From the IMG/VR virus record IMGVR_UViG_2778261448_000005: 36,585 bases of DNA. The stretch is one strand, 5' to 3'. Under the pieces are notes generated by a model that was given only the letters and a program-made list of their open reading frames with translations, was not told the origin of the DNA and made no database searches. This DNA is from a virus (taxonomy: Duplodnaviria > Heunggongvirae > Uroviricota > Caudoviricetes). This document shows positions 3,379 through 25,569 of the stretch, piece by piece (position 1 is the stretch's first letter; each line of letters starts with the position of its first letter). A program made the translations under genes and the position numbers.

Positions 3379-3582
3379 ATGGCAATTAAGCATTTTCCTG
3401 TCGTTCGTTTTACCTCCAGAGGACGTGAATACGAAGTCGACGAACGCCTGATTACCACAATCGACAAACACCGTTCAGAAAAGGATGCACATCACATCTA
3501 TCTCACTGACGGCACTTACTTCTGCGCCACGAATGTGGTGCAGGTGAACCTTATCCGACAGGTACAGGAGTCACGCAGATGA
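3379..3582 (+). CDS. hypothetical early-region protein
   Basis: 67-aa ORF with GGAGG RBS upstream. Confidence 0.4.
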   Translation: MAIKHFPVVRFTSRGREYEVDERLITTIDKHRSEKDAHHIYLTDGTYFCATNVVQVNLIRQVQESRR

Positions 3583-3824
3583 CCATTCTGGATTATATCG
3601 CTGCCAATCCGGGGTGTAGCGGTGGAGAAATCGCCGCAGCACTGAATACCCCAACCACAGCCATTAATGCGGAGTTACGCCGACTCTGGCGCAGCGGTTC
3701 AGTCATAAGAAAAGAGCGCAAAACAGGCGGTCGCTTTTCTTACCAGATAAACCCGATGCCGTTCGGGTGCGGCAATCCACTTACCAACATGTTTAACCAG
3801 CTACTGAAGGAAGCCAGAGCATGA
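3579..3824 (+). CDS. small putative DNA-binding protein (winged-helix-like)
   Basis: 81-aa ORF, start overlaps the previous stop. Assignment by composition only. Confidence 0.4.
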   Translation: MTILDYIAANPGCSGGEIAAALNTPTTAINAELRRLWRSGSVIRKERKTGGRFSYQINPMPFGCGNPLTNMFNQLLKEARA

Positions 3825-4120
3825 GCACCATCAACCACCAGAAGCTACGCGAACTGGCATTTGCCCTGCAACGAATGGCAACGCCTCAAAAATTACTGGC
3901 ATTTCGCGCAATGCTCTCGCCGTCTGCTGTGCTGGCACTGCTGGATCAGCTGGAGCACGCCAGAACCACGGCTCCTGCCATTCGCCTCACGCTCCATCAT
4001 GAAATCGCTGATTTCTGCGCAACGCTGGGGGCACCTGGCGAACCGGAAACGCCGGAAGCAATGCAGCAAGAGCTGCTGCAACGCATCGATAACGTTTTTG
4101 ATTTTTTTCTGAACCAGTAA
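3821..4120 (+). CDS. hypothetical early-region protein
   Basis: 99-aa ORF, overlapping start and stop with the preceding gene. Confidence 0.4.
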   Translation: MSTINHQKLRELAFALQRMATPQKLLAFRAMLSPSAVLALLDQLEHARTTAPAIRLTLHHEIADFCATLGAPGEPETPEAMQQELLQRIDNVFDFFLNQ

Positions 4121-4243
4121 GAAACCAGAACATGCACACACAAAAAAACCGCTTGCCATGCCTCAATCGGTCAGGTTACATTTCCGCTGCACCTCATAAA
4201 ACGGGTGCCGGGATTCTCAACCCGATACAGAGCAAAGCGCATA

Positions 4244-4263
4244 ACCGCGCAAGCGGTTTTTTT
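4244..4263 (+). terminator. intrinsic-terminator-like hairpin with U-run
   Basis: AACCGC-GCAA-GCGGTT stem-loop followed by TTTTTTT, downstream of the ORF ending at 4120. Confidence 0.45.
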
Positions 4264-4442
4264 GTGCGTACTGTATTGCCACGTCTTTTTCGCGTCAGAA
4301 TTATGGCGGGGCGTACGGGGCCGACTTCGGTCGGGCCGGATTCTTTGCTCTCCGGTGTTGAGAACCCTGTACGTCTCGCCACCCCGAGATTCTCAACTCT
4401 GGATGGTGAGTTATTTCTATCACCGAGCAAAGAGGCCACACC

Positions 4443-4673
4443 ATGGCAGACCGCAAACAGCACCGCGCTATCGCGGAGCGTCGTCACATCCAGACTGAAA
4501 TCAACCGCAGACTTTCCCGCGCATCACGCGTCGCGCAAATCATGCACATCAATATGCTGCATGAGCGCAGCCACGCACTATCAAACATTTATTCCGCCTC
4601 TGTTTTCAGCTATCTGGCGGATGATCTGCACGAGCTTCAACAGCTCATCCAGCAGCAAAACAAACTCCATTAA
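4443..4673 (+). CDS. hypothetical early-region protein
   Basis: 76-aa ORF with GAGG RBS upstream. Confidence 0.4.
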   Translation: MADRKQHRAIAERRHIQTEINRRLSRASRVAQIMHINMLHERSHALSNIYSASVFSYLADDLHELQQLIQQQNKLH

Positions 4674-4745
4674 TTCCTGTTCCGGGCCTTTTCTGCACCT
4701 TGCGGCGGGAGGCCTTCGCACATCTGTAGTAAAGAGAATTGCAGC

Positions 4746-5135
4746 ATGATTGACGCTCATGACTTCACAAGATGGGTGCGCACACAGGACACCCGTCTGG
4801 CTCCCGTTCTTCAGGGGTTATTTGATCTCTACATCCGTGGTCGTGACAACAGAGCACGCACCACAAAACCGGAGAATGCAGACACCCTTTATTTCACAGT
4901 AGACGACTGCTACCGCGTGGACTTCACACCACACGGACTGGCGTTGCACTGCCTGACACCGCACGGCGAATCACTGCTGGCGTATTACGACTCTCCGGCC
5001 TCCGTATTTGCAGCAATGCTGGCGCATCGCACTGCTGGCGGGTGTGCCTCGCTGAGTGAATACACCGCTGAATTTAACCGCCTTTCCGCCCTCTTCTCGC
5101 AGGAGTGGCAGCGCGTGACGGGATACCAGCCATGA
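4746..5135 (+). CDS. hypothetical protein, translationally coupled to gpA
   Basis: 129-aa ORF whose stop overlaps the gpA start (ATGA at 5132-5135). Confidence 0.45.
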   Translation: MIDAHDFTRWVRTQDTRLAPVLQGLFDLYIRGRDNRARTTKPENADTLYFTVDDCYRVDFTPHGLALHCLTPHGESLLAYYDSPASVFAAMLAHRTAGGCASLSEYTAEFNRLSALFSQEWQRVTGYQP

Positions 5136-7972
5136 GTGCGTTTGCATGGAGCTGGAATGAACCACGACCAGCTATTGATCCGGCCAGATTTACGGAGCGC
5201 AGGCAGGAAACTGAAACCGACCTGCAACGCGCCATCCGTTACTACCTTGAGGCGGACAAAAGGGCACAGGAAGAACAGGAAGCGAAGGAAGAAGCCTTTT
5301 TCGCACAATCCGCCATGGGTAAAAAACTCATGGCATCCCTTGAGGAAGCCGGACAGCGTGAAAAGCTGGCACAGAGCATCATCAGTAAGCGCCGGGCAAC
5401 AGAACAAGACCCGGTAGCCCGTGCCTTTGCCACACTGAAGGCGCTTCCCGGTTATCTGCGAGAACCTCTGAGCCGCCACCTCTCTTTCCTGCGCAAGAAG
5501 CAGGAAGCCGATCGTCAGAAAGGCAAAAAGACCTGGCAGGCGGAACGCTATGCACGCGGAACCCTGCGCAAAATATTCGAACGTCTGGATCGCACTGACG
5601 GGCGCTGGCTGACACCTGGTTATCGCTCCCTTGCCGGACGCGAACGCCTGGACGATTTGCTTTACCTGCCGCAGCTCAACAAACACCAGATACAGACGCT
5701 GGCCACCATGACGGCGGCGATGTTCAGCAGCACCTTCGAAAAACTCTGCGATGGCTTTGGCGCGACCGATGGCGAACTGACCATGGATGTAACGCTGAAG
5801 GCGTATCAGATGCTGGCCCGCATGGCGTTACACCTGCACATCATGCCTCCACATTATGACGCACTGACAACAGATAAAGACCGGAGGAACGAACCGGACA
5901 CGGAGCTGCTGCCGGGCGCAATCCTTCGCCTGACCTGTGCGGAATGGTGGAAACGCAAACTGTGGCTGTTACGTTGCGAGTGGAGAGAAGAACAACTCCG
6001 CGCCGCCTGTCTGGTTTCCAGAAAAACATCGCCCTATCTGAGCCAGGACGCATTAAGCGAGTTTCGCGCACAGCGCGAGAAAACACGCGATTTCCTGAAA
6101 AGTTTCATGCTGGAAAACGAAGATGGGTTCACGATTGATCTCGAGACAGTGTATTACGCGGGAGTAAGTAACCCGGTTCACCGTAAGGCAGAAATGATGG
6201 CCACCATGAAGGGGCTGGAACTTCTGGCCGAAGCCCGTGGCGACAGAGCGGTGTTTCTGACTGTCACCTGCCCGTCAAAATACCACGCCACAACAGAGAA
6301 CGGTCATCCGAATCCCAAATGGAACGGAGCCACCATGCGCGACTCCAGCGATTACCTGGTTAACACGTTTTTTGCGGCGGTCCGCAAGAAACTGAACCGC
6401 GACGGCCTGCGCTGGTATGGCATCCGCACGGTGGAGCCTCACCATGACGGCACCGTGCACTGGCATATGATGGTCTTTGCTCATCCGGAAGAAATCGACA
6501 CTATTGTGTCCCACACCCGCGATATTGCCATTCAGGAAGATCGTCACGAGCTGGGTGATGATATTACCCCACGCTTTAAGGCGGAGTACGTCGACGGCTC
6601 AAAAGGCACACCGACCAGCTACATCGCCACCTACATCGGGAAAAACCTGGACAGCCGTGCCGTGGATGGCATCGACCCGAAAACGGGCAAGCCACGCGTT
6701 GACCACGAAACCGGAAAATCAATGGCCGAGAGCGTGGAACGCGCCATCGGCTGGGCGCGCCTTCACCGGGTCCGCCAGTTCCAGTTCTTTGGCATCCCCT
6801 CCCGCCAGGTATGGCGTGAACTGCGCCGCCTTGCCAGCCAGATGGCACGCAACCCGGAAGGCCCGCAACGGCTGAAGGATGACGCAATGGATGCGGTTCT
6901 TGCCGCCGCTGATGCCGGATGTTTTGCCACCTACATAGAGAAACAGGGCGGCGTACTTGTTCCACGCAAAGACTACCTGATTCGCACCGCCTACGACCTC
7001 GCCGATGAGATGAACGATTACGGCGAACAGAGCGTACAGATTTACGGGATCTGGTCACCACTCATCGGGGAATCCTCCCGTGTGTGCACGCATCCGGATA
7101 ACTGGAAGCTGGTAAGACGCAAACCGGAAGCGGAAGACAGCGCCCGCGAAAATGGTTTTGACCTTCAGGGCGGCCCTGCCGCCCCTTGGACTCGTGGCAA
7201 TAACTGTCCCCGTGTACAGGAAACGGACAACAACGGGACAGAACAGCCGGAAGAACGGCCAGCACCGTGGCCGCAGCTCCCTAACGGCGTTGAAGTGAAC
7301 GAATGGATGCGCTCACTGAAACGACACGAACGCCGGGCGCTGATGCGTTCGCTTCGTGACAAACAGGCAAAAAACAGCAGCGATGAAATGCAGAGCTGGA
7401 CACAGAGCCGCAAACAGCAGCGGCCTTTGCCTGATAACCACGAATTACTCGCTAAAGAATGGCGGGAGTCTGCTGAATCTCTCGGCCTGCATATCGGTGA
7501 ACAACAGATGCAGCACCTGTTACGGGGCGGCAGTCTGTACGTTGACGGCAGCATCATTGCACCGCAGGGATTTGAAATTGTACGCAAACCGGATGCCCGC
7601 CCGGACAGCCGAATCACGCAGCTCTGGCAGCGCCTGAGCCGTAATCACGGCGTAAGCAGCACGGAGATCCGCCATAACCCGGTCTCCAGCTATCTGGCAC
7701 AGCTCGGGGCATCAGACCCCGAAGCCGCCGCACGCCTGGCATCCACACTTCAGCAGGTCCAGAACACCATGAAAACACCCGTTACCGTGCTTTCTGACAT
7801 GCTGCGCGCCATTCGTGACGCAGAGCACGCACAGAGAATCAGAGAAACCACTGAACGCGCCCGCCGCAAAGCAAACCTGCTGAGGACTGGCCTGACCAGT
7901 GGAAACAAAAAACAGACAGAAACGGGATTCACAAATCCCGTAAATGAGCAAAAAACGCGCCGCGATATATGA
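5132..7972 (+). CDS. A: rolling-circle replication initiation endonuclease, P2 gpA family, with a long C-terminal extension
   Basis: Metal-binding HxH motif (HDGTVHWHMMVF) and paired active-site tyrosines (SYIATYIGKN). About 946 aa from the ATG at 5132. Confidence 0.9.
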   Translation: MSAFAWSWNEPRPAIDPARFTERRQETETDLQRAIRYYLEADKRAQEEQEAKEEAFFAQSAMGKKLMASLEEAGQREKLAQSIISKRRATEQDPVARAFATLKALPGYLREPLSRHLSFLRKKQEADRQKGKKTWQAERYARGTLRKIFERLDRTDGRWLTPGYRSLAGRERLDDLLYLPQLNKHQIQTLATMTAAMFSSTFEKLCDGFGATDGELTMDVTLKAYQMLARMALHLHIMPPHYDALTTDKDRRNEPDTELLPGAILRLTCAEWWKRKLWLLRCEWREEQLRAACLVSRKTSPYLSQDALSEFRAQREKTRDFLKSFMLENEDGFTIDLETVYYAGVSNPVHRKAEMMATMKGLELLAEARGDRAVFLTVTCPSKYHATTENGHPNPKWNGATMRDSSDYLVNTFFAAVRKKLNRDGLRWYGIRTVEPHHDGTVHWHMMVFAHPEEIDTIVSHTRDIAIQEDRHELGDDITPRFKAEYVDGSKGTPTSYIATYIGKNLDSRAVDGIDPKTGKPRVDHETGKSMAESVERAIGWARLHRVRQFQFFGIPSRQVWRELRRLASQMARNPEGPQRLKDDAMDAVLAAADAGCFATYIEKQGGVLVPRKDYLIRTAYDLADEMNDYGEQSVQIYGIWSPLIGESSRVCTHPDNWKLVRRKPEAEDSARENGFDLQGGPAAPWTRGNNCPRVQETDNNGTEQPEERPAPWPQLPNGVEVNEWMRSLKRHERRALMRSLRDKQAKNSSDEMQSWTQSRKQQRPLPDNHELLAKEWRESAESLGLHIGEQQMQHLLRGGSLYVDGSIIAPQGFEIVRKPDARPDSRITQLWQRLSRNHGVSSTEIRHNPVSSYLAQLGASDPEAAARLASTLQQVQNTMKTPVTVLSDMLRAIRDAEHAQRIRETTERARRKANLLRTGLTSGNKKQTETGFTNPVNEQKTRRDI

Positions 7973-8030
7973 AGCGCGCACAAAACAGGCGAAAGCGGGA
8001 TTTAAAAATCCCGTAAACGGTTAATTAACC
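7922..8030. promoter_or_regulatory. palindromic repeats across the gpA 3-prime end and parM leader, candidate ParR operator or centromere, or origin-associated
   Basis: Two copies of cGGGATT-N-AAATCCCGTAAA (7922-7944 and 7995-8017) and a perfect 12-bp palindrome GGTTAATTAACC (8019-8030). Confidence 0.35.
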
Positions 8031-8048: not shown

Positions 8049-9008
8049 ATGAAAATTTGTATCGACGACGGCTCCACCAACATCAAGCTGGCATGGACTG
8101 AGAATGGCGAACGCCGCAACGCCATCAGCCCGAACAGCTTCAAGTCGGAATGGTCTGCGCCGTTCGGTGGCATGCAGCCCGCGAACTACATGCTTGATGG
8201 CGTGCGCTATGGTTTTGATCCGGTCAGCGATCGCTTTGTCCAGACGACCGACACGCAATACCAGTACAGCGATGTGAATGTAATCGCCATTCATCACGCG
8301 CTGGTCAAATCAGGCATCACGCCACAAGAGGTGGATGTGGTTGTCACCCTGCCACTGAGCGAGTATTTCGAGACAAACGCACAGCCGGACATGGCCAACA
8401 TCAACCGCAAAAAAGCGAACGTTATGCGCTCGGTGGAGTACCAGAACGGCGAAGCATTCACTATCCGTAACGTGCGGGTTATGCCTGAATCCATTCCGGC
8501 TGGCTTTAAAGCACTGGCTGACATGAGTCCGTTTGAATCCCTGCTGATTGTGGATTTAGGCGGAACCACGCTGGATGTGGCAAAGGTTCAAGGGCAACTG
8601 GCAGGTATCAGCCAGGTGTTTTGCGATCCACACGTAGGCGTTTCCCTGATGGCCGATGCCGTACTGTCGGTGATGGCCACTAACGGTATGCGCACCAGTC
8701 ACCACATCGCCAATACCATTATCGAACATCGCCATGATGAAGCCTGGCTGCGCCAGCACATCCACAATGACGCGCATTACGCCAGCCTGATGGCGGTTAT
8801 TCGTGAAAAGGAAGAAACACTGAAACAACGCGTGATCCGCGCGCTGGCGGTTTTTTCGGGTTACGGGCGGGTGATGGTTGTCGGTGGAGGGGCGGAGATT
8901 GTGGCACCCGCTATCCGCGAAGTCTGCGGAGTTAATGCGACTTTCATCGCGGACGGGGTGCCACAGTTTGCTCTGGTTAATGGGCTGTACGCAATGGACA
9001 AGGAGTAA
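8049..9008 (+). CDS. parM: ParM/StbA-family actin-like segregation ATPase
   Basis: N-terminus MKICIDDGSTNIKLAW and downstream blocks (SPNSFK, YSDVNVIAIHHAL, DLGGTTLDV, VGGGAEI) closely parallel plasmid R1 ParM as I recall it. AAGGAAA RBS. Confidence 0.85.
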   Translation: MKICIDDGSTNIKLAWTENGERRNAISPNSFKSEWSAPFGGMQPANYMLDGVRYGFDPVSDRFVQTTDTQYQYSDVNVIAIHHALVKSGITPQEVDVVVTLPLSEYFETNAQPDMANINRKKANVMRSVEYQNGEAFTIRNVRVMPESIPAGFKALADMSPFESLLIVDLGGTTLDVAKVQGQLAGISQVFCDPHVGVSLMADAVLSVMATNGMRTSHHIANTIIEHRHDEAWLRQHIHNDAHYASLMAVIREKEETLKQRVIRALAVFSGYGRVMVVGGGAEIVAPAIREVCGVNATFIADGVPQFALVNGLYAMDKE

Positions 9009-9012
9009 ACCA

Positions 9013-9327
9013 ATGACGACACCAACCAGACGGATAAGTTTCTATCTGAAGCCCGCCGCCGTCAAGAGTGAACAGGAGGCGTGCAATTACCTCGATAGCC
9101 TACCAGCCTCCGAACGCAGCCGCGCGCAACGCGCGGCCTTTCTGGCTGGGCTAGCGCTCATAAAGCGCAACCCAGCATTTGCCTACTGGATGGCCGAATG
9201 GCCAGAGGACAACCTCCCCTTCAATACCGTTAGCATCAAGGAAACATACCAGGATAATCAGCCTAGCGGAGTTGAATGCAATTTTTATAGAATAAAAAAG
9301 AATATTCAGACCTTATTCCCAGAATAA
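9013..9327 (+). CDS. parR: ParR-like centromere-binding adaptor
   Basis: 104 aa immediately downstream of parM. N-terminal segment (RRISFYLKP ... LDSLPASERSRAQRAAFLAGLAL) resembles R1 ParR. GGAG RBS 7 nt upstream. Confidence 0.7.
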   Translation: MTTPTRRISFYLKPAAVKSEQEACNYLDSLPASERSRAQRAAFLAGLALIKRNPAFAYWMAEWPEDNLPFNTVSIKETYQDNQPSGVECNFYRIKKNIQTLFPE

Positions 9328-24991: not shown

Positions 24992-25569
24992 TGACATTCA
25001 GAATGAGTGAACAATCACGGACCATAAAAATTTATAATCTACTGACCGGAACCAATGAGTTTATTGGTGAAGGTGATGCATACATTCCACCTCATACAGG
25101 TCTGCCTGCAAACAGTACCGATATTGCCCCGCCAGATATTCCGGCTGGCTTCGTGGCCGTTTTCAACAGTGATGAGGCATCGTGGCATCTCGTTGAAGAC
25201 CATCGGGGTAAAACGGTTTATGACGTGGCATCAGGGGACTCGTTATTTATTTCTGAACTCGGTCCATTACCGGAAAATGTTACCTGGTTGTCGCCGTATG
25301 GAGAGTATCAGAAGTGGAACGGCACATCCTGGGTGAAAGATGCAGAAGCAGAAAAACTGTTCCGGATCCGGGAGGCGGAAGAAACAAAAAACAGCCTGAT
25401 GCAGGTAGCCAGCGAGCATATTGCGCCACTTCAGGATGCCGTAGATTTGGATATTGCAACGGAGGAAGAGGGATCGTTACTGGCTGCATGGAAGACATAC
25501 CGGGTATTGTTGAATCGTGTTAATACAGCGGTAGCAGCGGATATTGAGTGGCCAGTCGCCCCACAATAA
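24991..25569 (+). CDS. G: tail fibre assembly chaperone G
   Basis: 192 aa, start overlaps the H stop. Position and size match gpG. Confidence 0.7.

Follow-up and report, generated by a model that had tools for sequence, protein, structure and literature searches.

A probable P4/P1-type antisense-RNA immunity cassette in the early operon of a P88-like prophage of Escherichia coli

Introduction

The immunity region of the satellite phage P4 comprises the promoter PLE, eta/kil, seqA, cI, which encodes the CI RNA, seqC and epsilon. In P4, CI and seqA lie inside eta, and a constitutive promoter is also located within this gene; full-length Eta is translated only from an upstream promoter, and the translation of Eta prevents termination (PMC10111431). 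P4 seqA and CI RNA have structural homologues in the RNAs IsrK and C4, and similar systems are found in P1, P7, N15 and some lambdoid prophages (PMC3632133). Here, we describe a locus at positions 4132-4749 of the IMG/VR record IMGVR_UViG_2778261448_000005, a stretch of 36,585 nucleotides (nt) that is referred to as the window. The window is an E. coli prophage of the P88/Xuanwuvirus type, a member of the P2 family, and 4132-4749 is very probably a P4/P1-type antisense-RNA immunity cassette in its early operon. It represents a known kind of system, which is built from already-curated RNA families and is found here in P88-like P2-family prophages.

Weinberg et al. described the c4 motif, which frequently carries a UNCG tetraloop, and a two-hairpin a1b1 motif (PMC2864571, supplement). 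In the Salmonella prophage Gifsy-1, IsrK activates the translation of the antirepressor AnrP and induces the prophage (PMC4825925). Prophage P88 is inducible with mitomycin C (PMC5285337).

Two curated RNA families upstream of the replication gene

An earlier note on this DNA, made from its letters alone, had read the roughly 320 nt at 4120-4442 as structured non-coding DNA, containing a small regulatory RNA or an attenuator upstream of the replication gene, and had proposed an Rfam scan and a covariance analysis. The Rfam scan matched two families, isrK and C4, both above their gathering cut-offs. Two small regulatory RNAs are indeed located upstream of the replication gene; however, they belong to curated families and are neither a new small RNA nor an attenuator. 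A sensitive Rfam scan of the interval revealed nothing significant beyond isrK and C4, and a scan for tRNAs and tmRNA found none. The module consists of the following elements:

4153-4182, plus strand: promoter-like site TTGCCA-18-TACATT from a consensus scan, predicted start at about 4189, collinear with P4 PLE upstream of seqA
4189-4263, plus strand: IsrK/seqA-like RNA (Rfam isrK, RF01394; full-length match with 63.1 bits against a gathering cut-off of 50)
4299-4386, plus strand: C4/CI-like antisense RNA (Rfam C4, RF01695; full-length match to model positions 1-87 with 78.5 bits against a gathering cut-off of 45)

For comparison, 80 IMG/VR loci collected via the 76-amino-acid gene that follows the interval were combined with three species-representative genomes and two phage records, which yielded 44 distinct module versions (alignment A2). 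The search of the species-representative genomes for epsilon-like genes retrieved only three loci, all of them close relatives.

Folding and a terminator scan divide the IsrK-like RNA into hairpin 1 (4189-4208), hairpin 2 (4209-4224) and a terminator hairpin (4243-4258) followed by U7. The element thereby combines a score above the gathering cut-off with two 5' hairpins and an intrinsic terminator, and its stems are paired to 98.5-100% in the 44 versions. The intrinsic-terminator-like hairpin reads AACCGC-GCAA-GCGGTT followed by T7, with its stem at 4243-4258; the terminator with a U-run that the earlier note had seen in the second half of its long repeat was thus recovered by the terminator scan. 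The transcript 4130-4270 suggested there is not a likely RNA, since the isrK model and the promoter-like site place the 5' end at about 4189. Both hexamers of this site, TTGCCA and TACATT, are invariant in alignment A2, and the site may act as an internal promoter. A second promoter-like site at 4276-4304 was rejected; many versions have TCGCCA as its -35 hexamer, and transcription from it would begin within C4. The C4 model also matches c4 of P1, whereas the a1/b1 region of P1 is detected by a separate model, c4-a1b1 (RF03163). The window reaches 15.9 bits with this model against a cut-off of 46.7, and its upstream element is of the isrK type with an intrinsic terminator.

The mature C4-like RNA is predicted to extend from 4305 to 4383 (79 nt), with ends assigned by homology with the annotated c4 of P1. 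It folds into helix P1 (4304-4320/4365-4381), helix P2 (CCGAC-UUCG-GUCGG, 4321-4334) and helix P3 (4335-4339/4352-4356), so that a long closing stem encloses a tetraloop hairpin and a second hairpin. The antisense site b' (4342-4351) lies in the loop of P3 and a' (4357-4367) in the 3' joining strand. The predicted fold of 4305-4383 reproduces that of the family, with a minimum free energy of -47.1 kcal/mol (z -5.28; 73% of the ensemble). The 3' end, GCCACC, and the 5' edge, AAUUAU followed by GG, are compatible with maturation by RNase P, as in P1 c4. Among the 44 versions, the C4 stems are 99.9-100% paired; the hairpin stems overall are 99.7% paired, and five pairs show compensatory changes. 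The GGCCGAC-TTCG hairpin of the earlier note corresponds to helix P2; its outer G/C pairs, however, belong to the neighbouring helices.

Recognition sites and their covariation

The antisense strands a' and b' of C4 are complementary to upstream sites (a1/b1) and downstream sites (a2/b2):

4211-4221, plus strand: a1 target site, in and around the loop of IsrK hairpin 2
4229-4237, plus strand: b1 target site AGAGCAAAG, just 3' of IsrK hairpin 2
4342-4351, plus strand: b' site TCTTTGCTCT, in the loop of C4 helix P3
4390-4397, plus strand: a2 target site TTCTCAAC, complementary to a', 7 nt past the 3' end of C4
4425-4435, plus strand: b2 target site (GAGCAAAGA at 4425-4433), overlapping the Shine-Dalgarno sequence AAGAGG (4430-4435) of the ATG at 4443

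The spacing of these sites is the same as or nearly identical to that of the annotated sites of P1, and the geometry of b2 is that of b2/icd in P1. The direct repeat GATTCTCAAC occurs at 4212-4221 and 4388-4397, within a few bases of where the earlier note had placed it, whereas its inverted copy GTTGAGAA is found at 4357-4364 rather than at about 4364. A second complementary set, formed by AGAGCAAAG (4229-4237) and GAGCAAAGA (4425-4433) against TCTTTGCTCT (4342-4351), had been missed.

Nearly all variation among the 44 versions is concentrated in the six recognition sites, which change in concert. For a1-a' together with b'-b2, 91.0% of the cells are paired compared with 69.6% after shuffling, and changes on both sides affect nine pairs and 167 cells; the covariation score reaches 0.551 versus 0.142 for shuffled alignments (0/500), and slid controls give at most 0.146. 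For b1-b' together with a'-a2, the proportion of paired cells is 96.3% versus 68.8%, with 10 pairs and 178 changed cells and a score of 0.642 versus 0.119. The proposed covariance analysis thus revealed covariation in the a/b sites as well as in the C4 stems. The alignment contains five versions of a', 11 versions of b' and 17 site combinations, and the mean energy of C4-target duplexes is -24.1 kcal/mol for cognate and -11.6 kcal/mol for non-cognate pairs. RNAcofold runs of C4 with its targets were uninformative, as loop-loop and kissing complexes cannot be represented. The variation of the sites is characteristic of antisense specificities under diversification and resembles P1/P7 heteroimmunity, which was reportedly treated by Citron and Schuster in 1990 and is paralleled by the specificity variants found here.

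Compared with P4, the polarity of the a sites is swapped: the a1 loop of the window, UUCUCAA, resembles a' of P4 CI (UUCUCAC), and a' of the window, UUGAGAA (4357-4367), resembles a1 of P4 seqA (GUGAGAA); the two P4 sites are located at 4434-4449 and 4662-4677 of L004. Cross-pairing of about 6 nt between helper-type and P4 RNAs is therefore conceivable. Such a resemblance would fit a cassette that serves mainly in the conflict between helper and satellite, with IsrK/C4 of the helper interfering with or mimicking the RNA immunity of P4-like satellites instead of governing the switch of the prophage itself. This role was suggested for lambdoid prophages (PMC3632133), and the same type of module is present in satellites with primase-helicase genes (L130, L147). 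As the main purpose of the cassette we consider it improbable: the cross-complementarity comprises only about 6 nt at one of two sites, whereas the a2/b2 sites of the window covary perfectly with its own C4, so self-regulation has certainly been selected.

An Eta-like frame overprints the RNA genes

Two protein-coding frames are assigned to the locus, one of which is nested in the other:

4132-4749, plus strand: Eta/Ash-like open reading frame (ORF) of 205 codons, from the ORF list and with PHROG matches
4443-4673, plus strand: epsilon-like 'derepression protein' gene, 76 amino acids, after Pfam PF25738 and the RefSeq name

The earlier note had seen no convincing reading frame in the interval, had held it not to be protein-coding DNA and had named a conserved ORF spanning it in relatives as a refutation. 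Such an ORF is present. The Eta-like ORF begins 11 nt past the stop codon of the upstream gene, crosses the internal promoter, both RNA genes and, in a different frame, the whole epsilon-like gene, and ends in ATGA on the start of the ORF at 4746-5135. Its frame is open in 40 of the 44 versions, compared with 0-5 stops in the other forward frames. Five unrelated upstream junctions occur, and all of them retain an ATG in frame, located 10 or 13 nt ahead of the A-run and a few bases past the stop of a different upstream gene. The stop codon is conserved as well and in every case forms part of the ATGA shared with the following ORF. Within the epsilon-like gene, the Eta-like frame is free of stops in 59 of 60 versions, while the third frame contains three to six. 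Begun upstream of the internal promoter, spanning both RNAs and conserved as an open frame, the ORF has the layout expected of an Eta/Ash gene. It matches the same set of PHROG families as P4 Eta, namely phrog_995, 821, 6928, 29966 and 3960 (E 1e-15 to 2e-7); the E values are 6e-14 for phrog_6928 and 1e-15 for phrog_995, compared with 6e-89 and 3e-13 for P4 Eta itself. Judged by its sequence, the ORF belongs with P4 Eta/Ash.

All other isrK-C4 modules sampled likewise contain a long ORF that begins 5' of the IsrK start and extends through both RNAs; among them are modules of lambdoid phages, of satellites that encode a primase-helicase and of the divergent P2-like lineage L136. As described for P4 (PMC10111431), the locus harbours a translated frame together with RNA genes.

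Further observations concern these relatives. In L091, L092, L099, L096, L106, L126, L130 and L147 (lambdoid phages and P4-like satellites), an ORF whose start precedes the IsrK promoter runs through IsrK and C4; that of ASU11 (L091, 658-1320) extends in frame into a Rha-type antirepressor. The 'Ash' domain of Pfam represents the translated RNA module. L136 (IMGVR_UViG_2565956773_000026; module at about 4069-4683, minus strand) represents a divergent P2-like lineage with an epsilon-like protein that is 48% identical; it has the same arrangement without ORF129, and its open frame, also of 205 codons, terminates at the start codon of GPA itself.

With a conserved ORF of 205 codons spanning the interval, the locus could also be simply protein-coding for a regulator of the Ash family, and the matches to RNA families would be incidental. 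The PHROG families involved are annotated as transcriptional regulators, and one phage record carries the misc_feature 'similar to ash family protein'. This explanation is hardly credible. The variation in the six short sites covaries as RNA duplexes and not as codons, the stems show compensatory changes, and both RNA models score well above their curated cut-offs. The C-terminal half of the putative protein, moreover, overlaps the epsilon-like gene, is of low complexity and shows no conservation as a protein between the window and L136, and the PHROG annotation traces back to an old 'cI gene product' coding sequence of P4 which covers the CI RNA.

The 76-amino-acid product encoded at 4443-4673 matches Pfam PF25738 with 32.5 bits against a cut-off of 27 and is 32% identical to P4 epsilon over 50 amino acids (BLASTP, E 6e-9). 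Variable sites in this gene are distributed 20/16/32 over the three codon positions; therefore, epsilon is the frame under protein selection. By analogy with the described systems, the epsilon-like gene would be the first cistron under the control of C4.

Comparison with P4, P1/P7 and Gifsy-1

The isrK and C4 models match both P4 (seqA and CI) and the window. As in P4, the internal promoter-like site of the window lies at the same place relative to seqA/IsrK, an Eta-type ORF begins upstream of it and spans the RNAs, and the next gene is a homologue of epsilon, with replication functions downstream. The order in P4 is cI region, epsilon, orf151, orf106 and alpha; that of the window is IsrK/C4, epsilon-like gene, ORF129 and gene A. 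In contrast to the satellite P4 with its primase, the window represents a complete P2-like phage that encodes C, Cox and GPA. It has no separate kil segment, and b2 is located directly on the epsilon-like Shine-Dalgarno sequence. The epsilon-like gene is wholly overprinted by the Eta-like frame, which terminates at the start of the gene that follows. Furthermore, the window contains an inverted repeat of 18-21 nt that is absent in P4, and ORF129 is unrelated to orf151, a direct comparison of both showing no similarity.

With the immI region of P1 and P7 (c4, a1/b1, a2/b2, icd, ant), the window shares a C4-family RNA with a'/b', duplicated targets upstream and downstream at near-identical spacing, and a b2 site over the ribosome-binding site of the first cistron, whose product antagonises the repressor in P1/P7 and may, by analogy, do so in the window. 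It differs in the isrK-type upstream element and in the regulated protein, which is epsilon-like (76 amino acids) and not Icd/Ant.

In Gifsy-1, with the order isrK - orf45 (STnc1160) - anrP, the layout predicted for the window recurs: a short IsrK ends at a leaky terminator, and a processed stable RNA lies downstream (PMC4825925). An ORF starts there from an AUG at the 5' edge of the C4-like element; the corresponding AUG of the window, at 4303, is in the Eta frame. The output of Gifsy-1 is an antirepressor, which would be matched by the epsilon-like product if the analogy holds. Gifsy-1, however, is lambdoid, and its antirepressor AnrP acts through AntQ.

The long inverted repeat

The earlier note had placed an 18-bp perfect inverted repeat at the centre of its interpretation. 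This repeat is real: CACAAAAAAACCGCTTGC at 4139-4156 is the perfect complement of GCAAGCGGTTTTTTTGTG at 4249-4266 (18 nt) and can be extended to 21 nt at 95% (4136-4156/4249-4269). Its arms coincide with other elements of the module:

4136-4156, plus strand: left arm, within which fall codons 2-9 of the Eta-like ORF, an A7 tract and the beginning of the -35 hexamer
4249-4269, plus strand: right arm, comprising the loop, the 3' half and the U-run of the IsrK terminator

None of 1000 first-order Markov resamples of 3900-4800 contained a spaced perfect inverted repeat of at least 18 nt, and high values in the resamples were due to self-overlapping palindromes; the repeat thus exceeds chance. The left arm is invariant in the 44 versions; relative to the start predicted for IsrK, its A7 tract occupies about -47 to -41. 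In the long-range repeat, 17 of the 21 pairs never vary, and compensatory changes are absent. The pair 4153-4252 is standard in only five of the 44 versions and broken in the other 39. The inverted repeat is absent from the P4, P1 and lambdoid modules, and in a wider IMG/VR sample of isrK modules the arms were seen separately, without a covarying pair: AAAAAAACCGCTTG is accompanied by a non-matching terminator in L147 and L187, and AACCGC..GCGGT7 terminators occur without the left arm in L092 and L099. The repeat, which the earlier note had offered as the main structure of the interval, is the only element without comparative support, and the comparison of the sequences lends no support to a pairing function.

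If the repeat of 18-21 nt were nevertheless the functional core of an attenuator or RNA switch, in line with the attenuator that the earlier note had suggested, the left arm of transcripts from the early promoter would pair with the 3' half and U-run of the terminator, resulting in a loss of termination, a site for RNase III or the occlusion of codons 2-9. Alternatively, the 3' end of the short IsrK could pair in trans with the initiation region of the Eta-like ORF. The energetics are favourable. A transcript of 4121-4275 folds into a long helix (-56 kcal/mol, z -5.47), and a heterodimer of IsrK and the start of the Eta-like ORF is favoured by -19.5 kcal/mol (-17.8 kcal/mol in the majority variant). 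The left arm lies upstream of the small RNA because the 5' end of IsrK is predicted at about 4189, so it would be present only in transcripts from the early promoter; together with the non-random occurrence of the repeat, this speaks for a switch. We regard a switch as unlikely all the same. The arm pairs with the loop, the 3' half and the U-run of the terminator and not with its 5' half; it presumably cannot pre-empt the hairpin in the way of classical antiterminators, and covariation is lacking. The left arm doubles as an UP-like A-tract with the -35 hexamer and as codons of the ORF, which can explain its conservation.

The repeat may instead be a by-product of two independently constrained elements that happen to be complementary in the P88-like lineage, without a joint function. 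These would be the A-tract and -35 hexamer of the internal promoter with the first codons of the ORF on the one hand, and the IsrK terminator with its U-run on the other. Each arm is conserved on its own in other types of modules, the A7/U7 part is expected from promoter-proximal A-tracts and terminator U-tracts, as is well established, and 39 of the 44 versions carry the mismatch. However, at least 10 complementary bases beyond the A/U runs are unlikely for unrelated elements, and the core AAAAACCGCT/AGCGGTTTTT persists in the divergent L136. We therefore favour the by-product only tentatively, at slightly less than an even chance; it is slightly more likely than a dedicated switch.

Proposed working of the cassette

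From the homologous systems we infer the activity of the promoter, the processing of the RNAs by RNase P, the direction of regulation, including the sign of IsrK, and the relay of ribosomes. In a lysogen, the internal constitutive promoter at about 4153-4182 would start transcription at about 4189. Most transcripts would stop at the terminator, thereby giving the short IsrK/seqA-like RNA, while read-through transcripts would be processed, probably by RNase P as are c4 and CI, to the 79-nt C4/CI-like RNA. The b' loop and the a' strand of C4 are predicted to pair with a2/b2 just downstream. Since b2 covers the epsilon-like Shine-Dalgarno sequence, translation of the epsilon-like gene would be blocked and, by polarity, also the expression of ORF129 and gene A from internal-promoter transcripts. 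IsrK carries identical a1/b1 sites and would therefore compete for C4, acting either as a decoy and activator, like its counterpart in Gifsy-1, or as a co-target, the situation in P4.

Transcripts from the early promoter, in contrast, would include the AUG at 4132, and ribosomes arriving from the upstream gene could translate through IsrK, C4, a2/b2 and the epsilon-like gene in the Eta-like frame. The ATGA overlaps would then hand ribosomes over to ORF129 and finally to gene A, which would be the last link of a translationally coupled chain. As with Eta in P4, this coupled translation would leave lytic transcription unaffected by the RNA block. That the regulatory logic is correct in this detail is about as probable as that it is not.

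Several points weigh against the assignment or against this logic. The predicted promoter matches the consensus at only nine of 12 positions. Pfam Phage_ASH (PF10554), to which P4 Eta is a strong match, gives a sub-threshold 18.6 bits for the Eta-like ORF against a cut-off of 26, and the BLASTP match to P4 Eta is weak (E 0.08). The frame is broken in four singleton versions. The statistics for an open frame are modest: under synonymous recoding, the probability of observing no stop is about 0.06 for either of two lineages with only 48% identity between their epsilon proteins, and a single-substitution test, which discriminates only weakly, gives about 0.01-0.02. The epsilon-like gene lies inside the Eta-like frame, whereas it follows it in P4. 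Finally, IsrK may act as an activator (Gifsy-1), a competitor (as proposed for P1) or a co-target of termination (P4), roles that the sequence does not distinguish.

The broken-frame versions are L017, L051, L078 and L081, three of which have a shortened terminator T-run (T6 or T5). They could represent decaying prophages or sequencing errors.

A more elaborate reading combines these parts into a two-key immunity device on the replication gene. The Eta-like frame would be kept not for its protein but for the relay of ribosomes to ORF129 and gene A, rendering early-promoter transcripts immune to the block by C4. The terminator end of the lysogen's IsrK would pair with codons 2-9 of this frame and thereby act in trans to shut off the relay on early transcripts that are leaky or stem from a superinfecting phage. 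The combinatorial diversification of the a/b sites would be driven by selection for heteroimmunity among co-circulating P88-like prophages. Taken jointly, this combination of relay, trans shut-off and diversification is speculative and rather unlikely.

Prophage setting and annotation

Several complete E. coli chromosomes share the 3500-8000 stretch of the window with 100% identity, and 1469 of 5426 complete E. coli genomes contain matches to these 4.5 kb. The gene order is integrase, C-like repressor, cox, small early genes, an unannotated gap, 'derepression protein', the 129-amino-acid ORF, A and parM-like genes. The cassette is flanked by the following genes:

3821-4120: hypothetical gene, the last of the small early genes
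4746-5135, plus strand: ORF129, 129 amino acids (RefSeq; phrog_3237)
5132-7972, plus strand: replication gene A, GPA rolling-circle endonuclease (Pfam PF05840, E 1e-131; RefSeq coordinates)

The start of ORF129 overlaps the Eta-like stop by ATGA, and its stop overlaps the start of gene A in the same way. RefSeq annotations of E. coli genomes leave 4121-4442 empty, with the RNAs unnamed, and the P88 record (KP063541, L002) places a minus-strand 'hypothetical protein' over the IsrK/C4 region (L002, 5033-5221), again without naming the RNAs. This annotated protein and the minus-strand ORF at 4194-4487 were rejected as coding candidates; they have no family matches and contain one to six stops in relatives. 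A retron msr/msd, an idea derived from the flanking inverted repeat, was also discarded, since the downstream ORFs are the epsilon-like gene, the 129-amino-acid ORF and GPA, no reverse transcriptase is among them, and Rfam assigns both structures.

Elsewhere in the window, a ParM-like segregation gene and a partition/stability gene lie directly 3' of gene A (8049-9327, plus strand), plasmid-type partition equipment in an integrated P2-like prophage. The late prophage region contains a full-length Rfam match to IS009 (RF02111) at 25334-25532 on the plus strand, with 193.5 bits against a cut-off of 117.

Conclusions

Nothing in the cassette overturns the current understanding of these systems. 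The annotation of the region, which is empty, 'ash-like' or a spurious minus-strand gene, is corrected once the two RNAs, their targets and the overprinted frame are named. The many covarying specificity types form a natural series in which the rules of antisense recognition and heteroimmunity could be tested. With this cassette, a helper-type phage of the P2 family very probably carries the RNA immunity system familiar above all from P4, its own satellite, and the system is linked here to gene A and to an anti-repressor of the epsilon type.

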